Source: Oceanipulchritudo sp. (GTDB lineage: Bacteria > Verrucomicrobiota > Verrucomicrobiia > Opitutales > Oceanipulchritudinaceae). Taken from it: a DNA stretch of 24,000 nt. The position numbers and the translations under genes are program-made. The notes under the pieces are model-generated. The model was not told where the DNA came from. It ran no database searches and saw only the letters and a list, made by a program, of their open reading frames with translations. How positions within the stretch are numbered: position 1 is the stretch's first letter; each line of letters starts with the position of its first letter. The stretch spans positions 1,002-25,001 of the forward strand of contig JAWLGH010000024.1 of NCBI GenBank assembly GCA_041685165.1, given 5' to 3'. Shown here in pieces: positions 1 to 14,989 of the stretch.

Positions 1-809
1 TCCGTGAAGGCGCTCTGGAGGACGACAATGTTCTGCCCCTTGCCGCGGTAGCCCTGGTCAAGGTCGACGGAGTCGTCCTCGGCATAGGCAATGACAAAGT
101 TGCGGATGTTCGCGGTTCCGCCAAAGATCTCGATCCCGTCGTCCCCGGAAACGAAGATTTCGATGTTTTCAAGTTTGGTCCCGCTGCCGACCCCGCCAAG
201 GGTCAGGCCCTGGATTTCGTCCCCGTCCTCACCGGTGAGGGAGATCCCCGTGTGGCGGATGGAAACGTACTCCATCGTCCCCGCGGAGTGGCCGTCGTCG
301 GTTCCCCCGTAGGTCAGGTAGCTGGTCTCGGTGGCGGTATCGAGCCCGTGACGGCCGATCGGGTTGAGGCCCTCGATGAGGTTTGTCAGGACGAGGTCCG
401 GATTGGCGACATTGTCGGCGTCGGTGGCGTCGGCGTTGATGGAGGCGTCCCCGAGGACAATGACCCCGGCCCAGAGGCTGACGTCATTGTGGTCGAGGTC
501 GTTTGTCTGGGCCTGCACGGAGGTGAAGACAATCGGGTCCTCCGGCGTCCCGACGGCATTGATCGTGGCCCCGGAGGTCACAATCAGCGTGCTCGCCAGT
601 TCGGCGTCCGCGTCGTCGGCGTAGATCGTCACGCCCGGCTCGATGGTCAGGGTGGTGCCGGGGGTGACATAGGTCACGCCTTCAATGAGCCATTCCGAAC
701 CGGCGGGGAGGGTTGTGTCCGCGTCGATGAGCGGACCGAGTTGTGTCTGGGCGGAGACCAGGCTGGTCCCCGCGAGGGTGAGTGCTGTCAGTAACAACGG
801 TGTTTTCAT
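1..809 (-). CDS. secreted protein with parallel beta-helix-like repeats (N-terminal part; C-terminus lies beyond the left window edge)
   Basis: Absent from the ORF track because it runs off the edge. The reverse complement from the ATG at 809-807 reads MKTPLLLTALTLAGTSLVSAQTQLGPLIDADTTLPAGSEWLIEGVTYVTPGTTLTIEPGVTIYADD... and stays open to position 2. The N-terminus looks like a signal peptide. The later segment GTKLENIEIFVSGDDGIEIFGGTANIRNFVIAYAEDDSVDLDQGY resembles PbH1-type repeats. It starts 36 nt downstream of the TonB receptor stop on the same strand. Confidence 0.6.
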   Translation of the reverse strand, partial: MKTPLLLTALTLAGTSLVSAQTQLGPLIDADTTLPAGSEWLIEGVTYVTPGTTLTIEPGVTIYADDADAELASTLIVTSGATINAVGTPEDPIVFTSVQAQTNDLDHNDVSLWAGVIVLGDASINADATDADNVANPDLVLTNLIEGLNPIGRHGLDTATETSYLTYGGTDDGHSAGTMEYVSIRHTGISLTGEDGDEIQGLTLGGVGSGTKLENIEIFVSGDDGIEIFGGTANIRNFVIAYAEDDSVDLDQGYRGKGQNIVVLQSAFT

Positions 810-8866: not shown

Positions 8867-9397
8867 ATGCCCACCACCATACCGCTTCCCCTCCTTTTCG
8901 CTGTTGTTCTCCTTTTGCCGCTCTCCAACTCCAGTGCCACCAGCAAGGGTCCTATGAAAGAATCACCAGAAGCACCGCAACTCCGCCCGGAAACGCGTAA
9001 CTTGAGTCCGGAGGATTGGAAAAACAAGCTCACTCCGGAGCAATACCGCATCCTCCGCCAGGCCGGTACCGAACGTCCCGATGGCAGTGTCTATCACCAG
9101 TTTAAACAACAGGGTCCCGGGACCTATTTCTGCGCCGGATGCGGGACACCCCTGTTCTCCTCCGAGCAGAAGTTCGATTCCCGCTGCGGCTGGCCCTCGT
9201 TCTGGGATCCCGCCAGCATCGACAGTATCGAGACGCGCCCCGATAACAGCATGGGTACCCTCCGTACCGAGGTCGTCTGCGCCACCTGCAAGGGCCATCT
9301 CGGGCATCTCTTCGAGGGAGAGGGCTTCGATACCCCCACCGATCAACGCTACTGTATCAACGGTACCGTCCTTGTCTTTGTTCCCGACGAACCGTAA
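8867..9397 (+). CDS. msrB: peptide-methionine (R)-S-oxide reductase MsrB, possibly exported
   Basis: LTPEQYRILRQAGTERP, two CxxC Zn motifs (FCAGCGTP and VCATCKGHLGHLF), CGWPSF and the catalytic RYCINGTVL are present. The N-terminal 25-30 residues are hydrophobic (MPTTIPLPLLFAVVLLLPLSNSSA). An alternative internal start exists at 8954. Confidence 0.9.
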   Translation: MPTTIPLPLLFAVVLLLPLSNSSATSKGPMKESPEAPQLRPETRNLSPEDWKNKLTPEQYRILRQAGTERPDGSVYHQFKQQGPGTYFCAGCGTPLFSSEQKFDSRCGWPSFWDPASIDSIETRPDNSMGTLRTEVVCATCKGHLGHLFEGEGFDTPTDQRYCINGTVLVFVPDEP

Positions 9398-9415: not shown

Positions 9416-10180
9416 CTAATGGACGCTTCCGCCCTTGATCTGGATGGGCTCCGGGGCCTTCTCCGCGGGGATGTTTTCCGCTTTGGCGATTCCCGGCCAC
9501 GAGCCCTGCGGGGCCGCCCAAGCGACGGCATTGTGGATGACTTTCAGGACCGACTCGTTATAGTAGATTGGATAGGTCTCGTGCCCCGGACGGAAGTAAA
9601 AGATTTTCCCGTTTCCCCGATGCCAGCAGTTGCCGCTGCGGAAGACCTCGCCTCCTTCAAACCATGAGATGAAAACCTGTTCCTCGGGCTCGGGTATGGA
9701 AAAGGGTTCCCCGTACATCTCCGTATTTTCGAGTTCGATACAGGGGCCGATGCCGGCCGCGATCGGATGGCCCGGATTGACGACCCAGAGGCGCTCGCGT
9801 TCACCGGCCTCGCGCCACTTCAGGGCGCAGGGGGTACCCATCAGCCGCTTGAAGATCTTTGAAAAGTGCCCCGAATGAAGGACAATCAGGCCCATGCCCT
9901 CGAGGACCCGCTGCTGGACGCGGTCCACGATGGCGTCCTGCACCTCACCGTGGGCACGGTGTCCCCACCAGATCAGGACGTCGGTCCCGGAGAGGACTTC
10001 CTCGGTCAGGCCGTGTTCCGGCATCTCCAGCGTCGCCGTGCCGATGGAGAGGGACTTCCCGCTGTCAAGCTTGCGCAGGCCGGCCTCAATCGCCCCGTGG
10101 ATGCCGTCGGGATAGAGTTTCCCGACCAGTTCGTTCTTCCGTTCATGGACGTTCTCGTTCCAGATGGTAACCCGTGTCAT
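9416..10180 (-). CDS. ThuA domain-containing protein (trehalose-utilisation-like)
   Basis: [35 protein letters not shown]...[14 protein letters not shown]...[10 protein letters not shown] fits the ThuA family pattern. The start lies 1 nt after the PolX stop. Confidence 0.8.
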
Positions 10181-10181
10181 G

Positions 10182-11951
10182 TCAGCCAGTTTTCAGGAGG
10201 GAAAGGACAGCGTCAAGGGAACGTGTATTGAAAATATCCTTCACCCCGAGGCCCGCCTTGCGCGCCGAGAGAATACCCGCCTCGAGGTAATCGAGGTCCT
10301 CCACCGCATGGGCGTCGGGAGTGACCACGCACAGGACGCCTCTCGCCGCGGCGTGGCCCCAGTGGCGCCAGTCCATGTCCATCCTCCAGGGGTTGGCGTT
10401 CAATTCGATGAGGACGCCGTTCCGGGCCGCCGCCTCGATGACCCGGCGCAGGTTCACCGCATAGCCTTCGCGGCGCAGGAGGAGGCGCCCTGTCGGATGG
10501 CCGAGGATCTTCAGGCAGCCGGTATCGGTCGAGATGGCCCGGATGATCCGCTCCGTCATCTCATCCTCGCTCTGGCCGGTCATTGAGCCGTGTACGGAGA
10601 GCACGCAGTAGTCGAGTTGTTCGAGGATGTCCTTCCCGAAATCGAGGGTTCCCTCTTTGAGGATATCGACTTCGCAACCCGCGAACAGATGGGCCTGCCC
10701 CTTGTCCCGGGAAGCATTCAGCCGGCGGATTTCCGCGACTTGCTCGAGGAGCCGTTCCGCATCCAGTCCGTTGGCCTGGAAACTGGCTTTGGAGTGGTCC
10801 GCGATCCCGATGTAATCGAGTCCCCGTTGCCCTGCCGCACGGGCCATCTCCTCAAGGGTGTTGTGCCCGTCGGAGGCCCGGGTATGATTGTGGAAGGTTC
10901 CCCTGAGGACATCCAGCGCGAGGGGATGCTCGAGTCGACCCGCCTCGGCCAACTCCACTTCGTCCAGGCCCTCCCGCCGTTCCGGCGGTATGTACTCAAG
11001 CCCGAGGGCCTTGAAGAGGTCGGCTTCCTCGCTGATTCCGTCCCGGGCAAGGGGCCGGTCCAAGGCTTTCCCGCCATCCTCAGGTTCATCCCCCTTGGTG
11101 AAGATTCCCCATTCCGACAGGGAAAGGCCTCGGGCCAGGGCCCGTTGACGCATCTTCACATTGTGGTCCTTGGAACCGGTGAAATGATGCAGGGCAAAGA
11201 CAAACCGGTCGTCGGGAACCACGCGCAAGTCGGCCTGCAAGCCCCCTTCAAAGCGCACGCTGGACTTGGTCTCCCCCCGGGCCGTGACCTCGCTCACGCC
11301 CGTCCGGGTCGTGAACCACTCCATGATGGGGCCGGGGTCATCGGAGGAGACAATGAAGTCAAGGTCACCCACCGTCTCGCGCACCCGCCGGAAGCTGCCC
11401 GCAACTTCGGCCCGCCGGACCTCGGGAAGCTTCCGTAACGCCTCCAGAAGGGGCTGGGCCACCGGGCGGACGTCCCACCAGAGATGACGCTTGCCGTAGG
11501 CGATGCGGTTCTCAATCCCGCTGAGGATGTTCTCCACGGACTTCTTCCCGAATCCGGGCAGCCCCGCAACCTTGCCGGATTCGCAGGCCATCTTCAGGTC
11601 CTCGATTGTCTCGACCAACAGTTCCTGTTGCACTTTACGGATCTTTTTTGGCCCGAAACCCGGGATCTCCAGCATCTCCATGAGGCCGCCGGGGACGGAG
11701 GCCCTCAGTTTGTCGTAGTAGGGCAGTTCCCCGCTTTCGCGGAGGACGGCGATCTTCTCCGCAAGGGCCTTGCCGATACCACTCACTTTGTCCAGCCGCC
11801 CTTCCTCAATCAGCTTGTCCAGATCCTCATCAAGGTTCCCGAGGGCGCGGGCCCCCGATTGGTAGGCCCGCACCTTGAAGGGGTTCTCCCCCTTGAGCTC
11901 AAGGAGGATGGCGATTTCTTCCAGACGGTCGGCAATTTCCCGGACTTCCAT
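10182..11951 (-). CDS. polX: DNA polymerase/3'-5' exonuclease PolX (family X polymerase with C-terminal PHP domain)
   Basis: The N-terminus has HhH motifs ([47 protein letters not shown]). The nucleotidyltransferase core is [19 protein letters not shown]. The PHP domain begins at [17 protein letters not shown]. The product is 589 aa. Confidence 0.9.
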
Positions 11952-11993: not shown

Positions 11994-13742
11994 CTAACGC
12001 CTTTCCGCACCCTGCCGCCTCAGGCTCGCAAGGGTGTCCCGGACAAATTCGCGAAACGGCGTCACCCGTGCCCCCCGTTGGGCGTTCTCCTCCGCAATCT
12101 CGAAGGCGATACGCCACTGCCTGCAGAGGATCATCCAGGCATGCAGCAACCCGTGGCGGGGATCGTAGATGTGGGCGGCCTCCGAGGTCAGGCCGTTCAC
12201 TTCAAGCACCTTGAGGCCTTCCCCTCGACGCAGGTGGTCCTCATCCGGGGCCTTGAGGTCGAAGCGCCCGAAGTGGAATCCCGGGCAGGCTGCGGCAATT
12301 TCGTCCATCCGCTTCTCCAGTTCAGGAGTCCGCAGATCCGTGCCATCGAGGAAAAGGGAGCCGAGGGCATGGGTTCCCAGTTCCCCGAGGGCAAGGACCT
12401 CCCCCTTCGCGGGAATCCTCTCCAGTTCCCCGGCAAAGCGGTCGAGAAAGGTGTCGAGAAGGGCAATGGCCCGGGGGTGCTTCAGGATAAGGGTCTCGAG
12501 GGTGTCCCTTCCTGTACCGGTCACTTCCAGCTGCACTTTTCTGGCAATTGAAAAGGTCCGTCCCCGCGTTTCGGAAGGATAGCGGAAATGGAAAATACCG
12601 AATTCCAGGCCGCCGACGTATGCCTGCAGGATGGCCGTTCCCCTTAATCCCGCCAGCCAGCCCCGCGCCGCCTCCTTGTCCCGGATAATGGCCACCCCCA
12701 GTCCCCGCTGCCCCTCGTCCGGTTTCAGCACCACCGGCCAATCAAGGCCAAGGGCCTCCATCGCCTCCTCAAGGTGTGCCATTCGTTCGGGTACCGGCCC
12801 CGGAGGCAGGTTTCGCCAGGCCGGAAGGGCCTCCCCGTCGGCGGCCAGCGCCTCGAGCAGGGTGCCCTTGCTCTCACCCACCACCCCGCCGTGTGGCATG
12901 CAGGGATTGACCGCCGTGAAAAGGGTGGGCCGTCGATAGCGGAAAATCCCGAGGTAAAGGACGTAGAGGAACACCACCCAGTTCACCTGCCAGACCGGCC
13001 AGAATTCCCATTGGGTCGCCCGGATCCATTTCCCCCGCAGGCGGCGGCGGCCCCGCCAGGTGAAAAGGGGAATTCCGTAATGAAAAAAAATATACAGAAG
13101 GAGCAGGGCCAGCCCGAGGGCCGGCAGGGCGAGGGCCTCGTAATTCTCGTAAAGCCTCAGGAGCCGGTTCCCGAGCAGATGGCTCAGCCCGACGAGAAAG
13201 GGTGTCCAGAGGGCCGCCGCAAGGGCAAAGACAAGGACAAATCGTCCGAAGGGCGCATGCAGGGCCCCCGCGGAAAAGTAGGTCGCGGATCGCGTGCCCG
13301 GGATAAACCGTGTGATGAGAATGATCCAGGCACCGTATCTCCGGAATTGTCCCGCCGCCCGGTCAACGGCCCGCTCCGAGACGATTAACCGCGACCACCG
13401 GTGGCGAAGGAGCGGCCGCCCGAAAAAATAGCCCAGTCCGTAAATGAGGGTGTCCCCGACAAAAATACCGGCAAAGGCCGCCAGCGTCGCGGAGGCATAG
13501 TCGAGCCGACCGGTGGCCGCCAGCAGCCCCGCGCTGATGCAGGCGAGGTCCTCCGAAAGAAGGGTCCCCACCGATATCGCCAGAAGCATCAGCCAGCGTC
13601 CGGTCCCCGTTAACGGTTCCCCCGGGGAGGCCAGGATGTCCGGATCACCAAAATCGGGCAGGTGCCTGTAGGAAACAATGAAGACAACAAGGACCGCCGC
13701 CACCCCGAAGCCGCCGGCGAGGGTCTTAGCCCTCCCGTCCAT
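11994..13742 (-). CDS. fusion protein: N-terminal DedA/VTT-family membrane domain + C-terminal ATP-grasp carboxylate-amine ligase-like domain
   Basis: The N-terminal half is polytopic with DedA-type motifs (LSEDLACISAGLLAATGRL, FVGDTLIYGLGYFFGRPLL, ITRFIPGTRSATYFSAGAL). Extra TM helices follow, and then ATP-grasp motifs appear (WPVVLKPDEGQRGLGVAII, LQAYVGGLEFGIF, GLKVLEVNGLTSE = ExN). The start overlaps the upstream NRDE gene by 17 nt. Confidence 0.75.
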   Translation of the reverse strand: MDGRAKTLAGGFGVAAVLVVFIVSYRHLPDFGDPDILASPGEPLTGTGRWLMLLAISVGTLLSEDLACISAGLLAATGRLDYASATLAAFAGIFVGDTLIYGLGYFFGRPLLRHRWSRLIVSERAVDRAAGQFRRYGAWIILITRFIPGTRSATYFSAGALHAPFGRFVLVFALAAALWTPFLVGLSHLLGNRLLRLYENYEALALPALGLALLLLYIFFHYGIPLFTWRGRRRLRGKWIRATQWEFWPVWQVNWVVFLYVLYLGIFRYRRPTLFTAVNPCMPHGGVVGESKGTLLEALAADGEALPAWRNLPPGPVPERMAHLEEAMEALGLDWPVVLKPDEGQRGLGVAIIRDKEAARGWLAGLRGTAILQAYVGGLEFGIFHFRYPSETRGRTFSIARKVQLEVTGTGRDTLETLILKHPRAIALLDTFLDRFAGELERIPAKGEVLALGELGTHALGSLFLDGTDLRTPELEKRMDEIAAACPGFHFGRFDLKAPDEDHLRRGEGLKVLEVNGLTSEAAHIYDPRHGLLHAWMILCRQWRIAFEIAEENAQRGARVTPFREFVRDTLASLRRQGAERR

Positions 13743-14472
13743 GAACCGGTCCTTCCTCCGGGTATGTCAGCATGAGGGGATCCTCGAATCCGTCTCCGTC
13801 GGCCGCCCTCGCCCGGTAGACCATCGTGAAGCCCCCCGTCCCTGTACGGACCTCAGTCTGGCTCACCGTCCGGGCATCGTCCCGGTCCATGGTCATCCCT
13901 TCTGCCGGGTCGGGAGCTTTTTCCCGCAGGCGCCGGGCGAGGGCCGCCCGTCCCGCTTCCGGATGATTCGCATGGAAGTCGTCCCAGGCCTTCTTCCGTA
14001 TCACGGGAATACTCCCCGGGCGGTAAGAAGAGGTTGTAAACCAGCCGTCCCGGGCCTCTCCAAGGGTTAGCCGGGTCCCGTCCCAGTCCGCTTTAAGGAC
14101 CCCCTCGGGTGAAAGGATGAAGAGGTGAAAAGGCGCGTAGGCTTCCGGCTGACCGTTCCGCAGGGCCTTTTCAGCCTCCTCGCCTGAAGCTGTCGCCGCA
14201 AGGTCACGCACGAGGAGTCCGCGACTCCGGCCTCCCCCTTTGGACAATGAACCTCCAGTCGCGTACGAGTTCAGGAGGGCGACCGCAAAGCCCTGCGACG
14301 ACACCGCAAGCCAGGTTCCCCCGCCTTCGGGATCGCGGGCATACCCCAGGGTTCCCTGCGGCCCCGGATACAGGCAGGGCGCTTCCGCGGCAGCCCGGCT
14401 CCGCTGCTCGTCGCGATTGAAACAGGCCCAGAGGTCGCCATTGGTCCCGGTTTCCCAAGCAAACGTGCACAT
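13726..14472 (-). CDS. NRDE family protein (TANGO2 homolog)
   Basis: The N-terminus is M-MCTFAW, matching the family-typical MCT start, so the second Met at 14472 is preferred. The eponymous motif ACFNRDEQRSR is present. The ~248-aa length fits the family. Confidence 0.8.
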   Translation of the reverse strand: MCTFAWETGTNGDLWACFNRDEQRSRAAAEAPCLYPGPQGTLGYARDPEGGGTWLAVSSQGFAVALLNSYATGGSLSKGGGRSRGLLVRDLAATASGEEAEKALRNGQPEAYAPFHLFILSPEGVLKADWDGTRLTLGEARDGWFTTSSYRPGSIPVIRKKAWDDFHANHPEAGRAALARRLREKAPDPAEGMTMDRDDARTVSQTEVRTGTGGFTMVYRARAADGDGFEDPLMLTYPEEGPVHGREG

Positions 14473-14479
14473 CACCCAG

Positions 14480-14989
14480 TCAGTTTGTCTTCTCGCCCAC
14501 GTGCGAGAGGGTGGAAGGCGCTATCCCAAACTCCGCCGGAAGGCGGGTGAATCCAAAGCGTCGCGCAATCGAGGCAATGAGGGCATAATGATGGATGGTG
14601 TGGCTGAGCAGGAATTGCAGTTCTCTCCGCAGAGTCGTCTTGCTCCAACTGGAGCTTCCCCCGTCGTCCATCCGGATCTGCAGTTCCCGGTCAAAGTCGG
14701 CCTCCGAGACGGTGCCCAGTTTTTCTATCAGGTTTTCAATCAGGTGAATGGCCGCGTCCGGCCGGGTCTCAATGGATGTATCCCGACTCCGGGCGTCGTA
14801 ATCGACCCACCCCGGTTCCATCCCCGTCATGAAGGCTTTGTAATGATCCAGATTGTGCCTCAGATGACCTCCGATGGTGCTTCCGAACACCTCCGCGCAG
14901 GGTTTGCTGTAAAAGCCTTCGGGCAGATTTCGCAGGAGTTCAATCCCTTGCCGCAGGCAGGAGATATTGGAGACGGCAAGTGTGTTCAT
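14480..14989 (-). CDS. DinB-family (four-helix bundle, metal-binding) protein
   Basis: 169 aa with His-rich motifs at helix ends (GGHLRHNLDHY and LLSHTIHHYALI), typical of the DinB/YfiT superfamily. It ends 4 nt upstream of the NRDE gene start. Confidence 0.7.
   Translation of the reverse strand: MNTLAVSNISCLRQGIELLRNLPEGFYSKPCAEVFGSTIGGHLRHNLDHYKAFMTGMEPGWVDYDARSRDTSIETRPDAAIHLIENLIEKLGTVSEADFDRELQIRMDDGGSSSWSKTTLRRELQFLLSHTIHHYALIASIARRFGFTRLPAEFGIAPSTLSHVGEKTN

Follow-up and report, generated by a model that had tools for sequence, protein, structure and literature searches.

Aminolipids replace phospholipids in many environmental bacteria, and the modifications of their head groups have been partly mapped. 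To our knowledge, no gene has been assigned for about fifty years to the one known ATP-dependent head-group ligation, in which taurine is attached to ornithine lipid, and we know of no established route by which aminolipids cross the inner membrane. Membrane proteins of the DedA family are nearly universal, and few of them have a defined substrate. A stretch of 24,000 nucleotides from Oceanipulchritudo sp. (Verrucomicrobiota; assembly GCA_041685165.1, contig JAWLGH010000024.1, positions 1,002 to 25,001), hereafter the window, carries a gene for a 582-residue protein that joins a DedA (VTT) membrane domain to an ATP-grasp ligase. What could a ligase and a DedA domain accomplish in one chain? 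We give a probability of roughly 0.5 to the reading, drawn from sequence comparison, that this gene encodes the membrane ligase of a hitherto undescribed aminolipid-tailoring module, comprising a DinB-like protein, a TANGO2-like protein and the DedA::ATP-grasp fusion, and that its DedA domain translocates the lipid. The fusion family is a candidate for both gaps, head-group ligation and aminolipid translocation, in one protein.

Two domains in one polypeptide

A first-pass annotation of the window, made from the sequence alone, had proposed that both domains belong to a single polypeptide, and this proposal stands. That a frameshift or the loss of a stop codon joined two genes in assembly or annotation has practically no chance of being right, and we reject it. 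Proteins of the same 582 residues, 100%, 90% and 84% identical to the window protein, were retrieved from independent assemblies by protein database search; the VTT and ATP-grasp domains lie within one open reading frame (ORF) in all 81 loci (82 proteins) assembled for the counts of context and architecture given below; and the junction (residues 227-292) is among the best-conserved parts of the protein in the family alignment.

The DedA domain had been recognised from FVGDTLIYGLGYFFGRP (residues 94-110) and RFIPGTRSATYF (residues 145-156), both of which are present, and is matched by Pfam VTT_dom (PF09335) over residues 70-187, covering positions 3-121 of the 123 in the profile, with 64.2 bits against a gathering cut-off of 33.9 (E 2e-17). 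Its core runs from a first re-entrant hairpin (E64, D65) through transmembrane (TM) helix TM1, a basic cytoplasmic helix and a second hairpin to TM2 and TM3. E64 and D65, together with R145, P148, G149 and R151 of hairpin 2, are invariant in 76 sequences, and the helix pattern of an AlphaFold (AF2) model is consistent with two re-entrant hairpins. The nearest NCBIfam model is UptA (NF052604, E 3e-19), an undecaprenyl-phosphate transporter; membership was rejected, the score being 70.1 bits against an equivalog cut-off of 250.

The C-terminal domain is securely assigned to the ATP-grasp superfamily, and its catalytic set is complete: the family profile, the structural matches and the invariant catalytic residues agree. 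The hallmarks noted at first pass, VVLKPDEGQRGLGVAI (residues 337-352) and LEVNG (residues 513-517), are in place, and scores against Pfam and NCBIfam models fall below the respective cut-offs. The RimK-type ATP-grasp model of Pfam (PF08443) covers residues 323-376 only, and with 18.1 bits against a gathering cut-off of 21 RimK-like membership was rejected. NCBIfam indicates weak nearness to cyanophycin synthetase, an archaeal Ddl-like protein and RimK; membership of cyanophycin synthetase (TIGR02068) was also rejected, at 20.4 bits against 850 and with an aligned region confined to the G domain. A single-sequence search of PDB sequences likewise retrieved the cyanophycin synthase G domain (residues 316-525, E 9e-5), which a 76-sequence family profile found at E 1.4e-7 with a shared VTGDG..T..ELI insert. 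The AlphaFold model, built on the same 76-sequence alignment (mean pLDDT 87, pTM 0.72), has cyanophycin synthetase 1 as its best Foldseek match in the PDB (E 1e-10, probability 1.0), followed by the ATP-grasp domain of GshF, cyanophycin synthetase 2 and many D-Ala-D-Ala ligases (E up to 1e-6, probability 1.0). K340 (in VVLKPDEGQRGLGV), E380, R493, D495, E514 and N516 are invariant in the 76 homologues, at identities down to 41%. The usual N-terminal ATP-grasp subdomain is reduced in the model to one strand and a few helices (residues 269-335).

Membrane topology and the linker

In YqjA, cysteine accessibility and modelling place the N-terminus in the periplasm and the C-terminus in the cytoplasm, with the order HPout, TM1, cytoplasmic helix, HPin, TM2, TM3 (10.1101/2021.10.18.464800; 10.64898/2026.09.20.752871). 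The helices of the model and the family-averaged charges of the fusion protein map onto this published topology (Table 1). The two further hydrophobic helices that the first-pass annotation had placed after the DedA segments, at ALPALGLALLLLYIFFHYGIPLF (residues 205-227) and VNWVVFLYVLYLGIF (residues 253-267), are present, with two amendments: the first (residues 203-226) is the last TM helix of the DedA domain itself, and the list omitted an N-terminal anchor helix, TM0, that precedes the DedA core. The family mean charges on either side of TM0 predict that the N-terminus lies inside. In most relatives TM0 leads into a predicted periplasmic alpha/beta-hydrolase domain, which the window protein lacks. 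In the three-domain relatives the hydrolase comes after a basic N-terminus and a hydrophobic helix (a clearly hydrophobic window in 57 of 80 proteins, preceded by a median net charge of +3); it is therefore predicted to be periplasmic.

The linker between the two domains is of a different nature from the helices of the DedA core. Residues 245-268 have a mean hydropathy of 0.76, compared with 1.4-2.0 in true TM helices, and an aromatic fraction of 0.35, compared with 0.16-0.19; both flanks are basic, and AF2 breaks the segment into helices 250-253 and 255-268. Because of this composition, the broken helix and the ATP requirement of the enzyme, the segment is more likely to be an interfacial or monotopic anchor than a full TM helix, and such an anchor would keep the ATP-grasp domain on the cytoplasmic face. 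The side of the membrane on which the ligase sits, a question raised at first pass, is thus predicted to be the cytoplasmic one.

An operon shared with aminolipid acyltransferases

The synthesis of ornithine-lipid-type aminolipids takes two enzymes, OlsB and OlsA. When the neighbouring ORFs of all 81 loci were clustered, an OlsB-like N-acyltransferase gene (PF13444; NF052555, E 4e-38) was found upstream on the same strand in 41 loci and an OlsA-like O-acyltransferase gene (PF01553; NF052553, E 2e-32) in 36; neither is in the window. A DinB-like gene lies upstream on the same strand in 49 loci, and a TANGO2-like gene directly upstream, again on the same strand, in 37. The usual gene order is OlsB, OlsA, DinB, TANGO2 and hydrolase-DedA-ATP-grasp, and the module of DinB-like, TANGO2-like and (hydrolase-)DedA-ATP-grasp genes recurs in about ten phyla. 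In the window, the DinB-like and TANGO2-like genes are separated by 4 nt, and the TANGO2-like gene, the only copy found in this genome, overlaps the fusion gene by 17 nt, an overlap that indicates probable translational coupling. The crystal structure of human TANGO2 suggests a Cys-Ntn hydrolase (PMC13044924), and the TANGO2-like protein of the window has the N-terminal cysteine expected of such an enzyme.

Co-occurrence was assessed in 301 Verrucomicrobiota genomes, where module and synthase are mostly unlinked. The ATP-grasp module is present in 39 of these genomes and an OlsB/OlsF-type GNAT (PF13444) in 175; the GNAT accompanies 36 of the 39 carriers and 139 of the 262 non-carriers (Fisher p 7e-7, a value that overstates the signal, as related genomes are not independent). 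In family f4, only four of 26 genomes have the GNAT, and all three carriers of the module are among these four, with the genes adjacent. The Oceanipulchritudo genome itself encodes, on another contig (C121 of G000), a full-length OlsF-like bifunctional synthase (L084:430-2349, E 4e-114). Of the three carriers without the GNAT, one is explained by a broken gene and the other two belong to family f7, in which two of three genomes have no OlsB/OlsF-type GNAT at all. The protein of one such f7 carrier and a protein from a sister genus were inspected, and both have lost catalytic residues of the hydrolase and ATP-grasp domains while keeping the DedA motifs.

Proposed function and alternative explanations

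The closest relatives of the ligase all couple an amino-acid amine to the alpha-carboxylate of a peptide-type substrate by way of an acyl-phosphate, and lipids of the ornithine-lipid type expose a free carboxylate at the membrane surface. Because of this carboxylate-amine chemistry, the exposed carboxylate and the precedent of taurine, a head-group ligase joined to a DedA translocator is the best-supported reading. In that precedent, the carboxyl of the ornithine head group receives taurine in an ATP-dependent reaction whose enzyme and gene are given as unidentified in a 2026 review (PMC12971839). The same ornithine-lipid review makes no mention of ATP-grasp, DedA, TANGO2 or DinB proteins (PMC12971839), and we found no newer paper naming a gene for the taurine transfer that yields cerilipin.

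In the proposed mechanism, both termini would be inside, the DedA core would be oriented as in YqjA, and the linker would hold the ATP-grasp domain at the cytoplasmic face. The ligase would phosphorylate a carboxylate, most likely the free alpha-carboxyl of an N-acyl-amino-acid head group supplied by the cell's own OlsF-like synthase, and would then join to it an amine, either an amino acid or a taurine-like compound, to give an extended head group. The DedA domain would move the modified lipid to the outer leaflet, and its two invariant arginines would be compatible with an anionic head group. Most relatives also have a predicted periplasmic serine alpha/beta-hydrolase, possibly with acyltransferase chemistry, which may act on the lipid there, a step that would be absent in the window lineage. 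A precedent for such acyltransferase chemistry is provided by OlsI, an alpha/beta-hydrolase that acts as an O-acyltransferase on lyso-ornithine lipid (PMC12493201).

The first-pass annotation had suggested an MprF-like logic, with ATP-dependent aminoacylation or peptidylation of a lipid or lipid-linked carrier coupled to its translocation. The logic fits the predicted topology, with the ATP-grasp domain inside, and the lipid-synthesis gene context; the chemistry, by contrast, is likely to be carboxylate-amine ligation via an acyl-phosphate rather than tRNA-dependent aminoacylation, and ornithine-lipid-type aminolipids are likelier substrates than phosphatidylglycerol or a polyprenyl carrier. 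A bolder proposal, that the family is the missing ATP-dependent aminolipid head-group ligase, coupled to the first DedA domain with a defined aminolipid substrate and with a TANGO2 homologue as its obligate partner, is tentative and, in our judgement, rather doubtful. If it were true, additions of amino acids or taurine-like compounds would yield lipids not yet described in most carrier phyla, and bacterial TANGO2 homologues would gain a concrete role, as Cys-Ntn amidases, in N-acyl-amino-acid lipid metabolism. In any case, the family puts a bacterial relative of TANGO2, a protein linked to human disease, into a defined lipid operon, and cultured carriers exist, among them Engelhardtia mirabilis Pla133 (L061), Fodinibius salsisoli (L021), Halalkalibaculum sp. 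DA3122 (L057) and Verrucomicrobiae bacterium DG1235 (L068).

Several points weigh against an aminolipid ligase and translocator. In this genome, as at most Opitutales loci, no aminolipid synthase gene adjoins the module, the link here being one of co-occurrence, and the GNAT is itself frequent among genomes of the phylum (58%). The roles of the DinB-like and TANGO2-like partners fall outside the proposed mechanism. Flipping need not be coupled to ligation, since proteins consisting of linker and ATP-grasp domain without DedA exist. The view that residues 245-268 do not span the membrane is inferred from composition and the ATP requirement. Finally, the DedA domain scores best against the undecaprenyl-phosphate transporter UptA, and the fusion is the only strong DedA protein of its genome.

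These last two facts also speak for a quite unlikely alternative, in which a UptA-type flippase would be paired with a Ddl-like ATP-grasp enzyme that attaches an amino acid to a cell-wall intermediate carried on a lipid, undecaprenyl phosphate or a peptidoglycan precursor being handled. The two hairpin-2 arginines typical of the COG0586 class of DedA proteins are invariant, Ddl appears in the list of structural matches, and the 97%-complete genome gave no DUF368 match, all of which would suit such a role. However, the UptA score is far below the equivalog level, the conserved neighbours of the 81 loci are OlsB and OlsA genes with no murein genes among them, the patchy distribution (39 of 301 genomes) is unlike that of an essential cell-wall function, and many carriers also have strong stand-alone DedA genes. 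Among 61 genomes of the order, no clean pattern of complementarity, with fusion carriers devoid of a stand-alone DedA, was seen, a result that is neutral as to a housekeeping role.

The operon context with OlsB and OlsA would apply equally if the enzyme made a soluble head-group precursor at the membrane, a dipeptide or an unusual amino acid, which an OlsB/OlsF-type enzyme would then N-acylate, while the DedA domain would anchor the enzyme, provide a scaffold for dimerisation or transport some other compound. The ATP-grasp relatives Ddl and GshF do use soluble substrates, and versions without DedA exist. Yet these versions still hold the polybasic and aromatic membrane anchor, and the substrate-binding N-terminal subdomain of the ATP-grasp fold is reduced, with the membrane linker in its place; both observations argue for a substrate presented at the membrane, and we consider a soluble precursor unlikely. 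The resemblance to the cyanophycin synthetase G domain, the closest relative in sequence and fold, with which the VTGDG...ELI insert is shared, could also suggest a polymer- or tail-forming ligase of the cyanophycin synthetase or RimK kind, which would extend a peptide, protein or lipid by several amino acids for export by the DedA domain. This is very improbable, given an identity of only 21-24%, the lack of a CphA M or N domain, a family score of 20 bits against 850 and conserved neighbours that, across the 81 loci, include no cyanophycinase or primer-related genes.

Relation to known systems

The aminolipid ligase and translocator proposed here would resemble MprF in that one polypeptide unites a cytoplasmic enzyme modifying lipid head groups with a lipid-translocating membrane domain, sometimes together with a periplasmic hydrolase. 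Both domains are nevertheless unrelated to those of MprF, since Pfam and NCBIfam scans of the window protein return only VTT and weak ATP-grasp matches. Moreover, MprF uses aminoacyl-tRNA and esterifies phosphatidylglycerol, whereas the window protein has an ATP-grasp domain, which would form an amide bond through an acyl-phosphate, a DedA domain and an aminolipid context. With the G domain of CphA1, and with the ATP-grasp domains of GshF, CphA2 and Ddl, it shares the fold and the complete catalytic set, and with CphA1 also the VTGDG..T..ELI insert. It differs from CphA1 in the low identity noted above, in lacking the N and M domains and in having the membrane linker and DedA domain where the N-terminal subdomain is reduced.

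UptA and YqjA (COG0586) share with it the full DedA core and the acidic pair in hairpin 1. The conserved hairpin residues of YqjA are E39/D51 and R130/R136, of which R130 and R136 are essential (10.1101/2021.10.18.464800; 10.64898/2026.09.20.752871); the two hairpin-2 arginines of the window protein are six residues apart, like R130 and R136. In contrast, its acidic residues E64 and D65 are direct neighbours instead of lying 12 residues apart, and it has an extra N-terminal TM helix and a C-terminal extension of 355 residues. The cerilipin of Gluconobacter cerinus offers the closest known reaction, the ATP-dependent formation of an amide bond between an amine and the head-group carboxyl of an aminolipid (PMC12971839), but it is known as an enzyme activity only, and the carriers described here belong to other phyla. 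OlsB/OlsA, OlsF and OlsH/OlsI share operons or co-occur with the fusion gene; the fusion protein is unrelated to these synthases and would act after or beside them without replacing them.

In a published survey of DedA fusions, the partner domains are rhodanese, PAP2 and oxidoreductase, with no ATP-grasp among them, and our literature search found no paper describing the DedA and ATP-grasp architecture or the module. In the source databases the homologues go only by 'VTT domain-containing' or 'alpha/beta fold hydrolase'. As its ATP-grasp domain stays under the Pfam thresholds, the fusion has been missed by surveys of domain architecture.

Distribution and evolution of the family

The fusion had been thought unusual; instead, a search for the same architecture in other genomes finds it in hundreds of species. 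The protein database holds at least 623 full-length homologues, and a scan of one genome per species gave at least 580 confirmed matches, the best 80 of which all align across the domain junction. These best 80 come from Verrucomicrobiota, Thermodesulfobacteriota, Acidobacteriota, Gemmatimonadota, Balneolota, Rhodothermota, Bacteroidota, Planctomycetota, Kiritimatiellota, Spirochaetota and Pseudomonadota. With the C-terminal 302 residues alone, 2310 cluster representatives were found at E <=0.001 and 863 at E <=1e-30; the top matches are mostly 520-620 or 770-925 residues long, with the match at their C-terminal end. The commoner form carries a third domain: the N-terminal alpha/beta-hydrolase is present in 62 of the 82 proteins and absent from 19, the window protein included, and one protein has no DedA part. 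A search of the Oceanipulchritudo genome for an orthologue of the missing hydrolase returned only generic hydrolases, at E 1e-10 or weaker.

In a quick maximum-likelihood tree (IQ-TREE), the window protein forms a fully supported clade with three Puniceicoccales proteins. This clade adjoins seven hydrolase-less proteins from Desulfobacterota, and a hydrolase-bearing Puniceicoccaceae protein lies just outside. Since at least six changes of the hydrolase-less state are needed on this unrooted tree, repeated loss or gain of the hydrolase domain is indicated. The closeness of the window clade to the Desulfobacterota clade (loci L006-L009, L011, L016 and L045) suggests transfer between phyla. In most of these Desulfobacterota loci a polytopic membrane protein of about 240 residues (cluster c15, no Pfam match) replaces DinB upstream of TANGO2; L016 also keeps its DinB gene. 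Among nine loci (L017, L018, L020, L022, L029, L033, L035, L043 and L051), proteins from metagenome-assembled genomes labelled Heliobacteriaceae or Heliomicrobium are nearly identical to those from Blastocatellia metagenome-assembled genomes (for example L017 and L022, with end branches of 0.031 and 0.021), and the bin labels look unreliable.

Two sets of variants show which parts of the protein are separable. Stand-alone proteins of about 380 residues, made up of linker and ATP-grasp domain, occur in three genomes of two families, G213 and G180 (f4) and G222 (f5), and no DedA domain was detectable near their genes. The aligned G213 protein has the polybasic and aromatic linker and an intact ATP-grasp domain with the catalytic set kept. 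The operon in G213 and G180 comprises DinB, TANGO2, a DoxX-like protein, a small secreted protein, the ligase, two OlsB genes and OlsA. Because such DedA-less versions exist, linker and ligase form the core, to which the DedA and hydrolase domains are accessories. Divergent three-domain homologues of family f7 (Verrucomicrobiota) are found at L089:2498-5668 (G276) and L090:4320-6953 (G192). They retain the DedA signature residues and the polybasic linker, have GYGQG or GQGFG in place of GxSxG, and so have lost the hydrolase nucleophile; R346, H458 and N516 of the ATP-grasp domain are lost in both, R493 and E514 in G276 as well. Among the aligned forms, the ATP-grasp catalytic set is lost solely in this divergent lineage, whose members look, from their sequences, like pseudo-enzymes retaining the DedA function only.

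Features of the locus and further neighbours

Table 1. Features of the fusion gene, its product and related genes; positions are those of the window unless a locus is named, and charges are family mean net charges
Feature	Position	Strand	Residues	Charge	Location or evidence
Whole gene, 582-aa membrane DedA::ATP-grasp protein	11994..13742	-			Open ORF
N-terminus			1-7	+1.7	Cytoplasm (predicted)
N-terminal anchor helix TM0	13668..13721	-	8-25		Membrane (predicted); AF2 helix 3-26; family charge pattern; anchors of three-domain relatives
Short acidic loop of variable length	13605..13667	-	26-46	-1.8	Periplasm (predicted); sits where relatives have the hydrolase domain
DedA/VTT core	13065..13604	-	47-226		Pfam PF09335; UptA-like NF052604; invariant columns; YqjA topology
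HPout (E64, D65)			47-76		Membrane (predicted)
TM1			82-108		Membrane (predicted)
Basic helix region			109-145	+5.8	Cytoplasm (predicted)
HPin (R145, R151)			146-164		Membrane (predicted)
TM2			165-190		Membrane (predicted)
Loop			191-202	-1.0	Periplasm (predicted)
TM3			203-226		Membrane (predicted)
Polybasic juxtamembrane helix TWRGRRRLRGKWIRATQ	13011..13064	-	227-244	+7.1	Cytoplasm (predicted); kept in DedA-less stand-alone homologues
Aromatic-rich hydrophobic segment WEFWP...	12939..13010	-	245-268		Composition and AF2 helix break
Conserved connector	12873..12938	-	269-290		RYRRPTLFTAVNPxMPxGGxxGE (N279, P280, G286 and E290 invariant); final K of the motif is K292 in the ATP-grasp part
ATP-grasp ligase domain	11997..12872	-	291-582		K340, E380, H458, R493-x-D495, E514-x-N516, VTGxGxxTLExLI insert
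Shine-Dalgarno GGAGGAAGG	13751..13759	-			9-17 nt before ATG, within end of TANGO2-like gene
TANGO2/NRDE-like upstream partner	13726..14475	-			Pfam PF05742, E 5e-11; N-terminal Cys (MMCT...), NRDE motif
DinB_2-superfamily partner, first of the three-gene unit	14480..14989	-			Pfam PF12867 and PF05163
Stand-alone ligases without DedA	L085:6981-8114 (G213), L086 (G180), L088 (G222)
Weak DedA-like gene, own genome	G000 contig C142 (L091:1271-1963)	-

Besides the fusion, the 97%-complete Oceanipulchritudo genome holds one weak stand-alone DedA-like gene (230 residues, 30 bits). In 16 of the 81 loci, a ferric-reductase-type TM domain fused to a Rieske 2Fe-2S domain is encoded ahead of OlsB/OlsA (e.g. 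L055:985-2085). It is preceded by a small protein without a Pfam match (c12), a pairing that may represent an oxidative tailoring step. DoxX-like small membrane proteins stand beside the module in 13 loci and an M48-peptidase-like secreted protein in seven (for examples of these neighbours, see L071:5143-5574, L085:6165-6575 and L040:7502-8233).

Downstream of the fusion gene in the window, and starting 42 nt past it, lies a gene for a PolX-family DNA polymerase with a PHP domain (10182-11951, reverse strand), followed after a gap of 1 nt by a ThuA-like gene (9416-10180, reverse strand). The position of PolX is kept in the closest relatives only (L001-L003), so that local synteny seems a better description than membership of the module. 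Further along, an MsrB-like ORF (8867-9397, forward strand) shows a CxxC...CxxC pattern in its translation and a hydrophobic N-terminus resembling a signal peptide, and its product may be a periplasmic methionine sulfoxide reductase.

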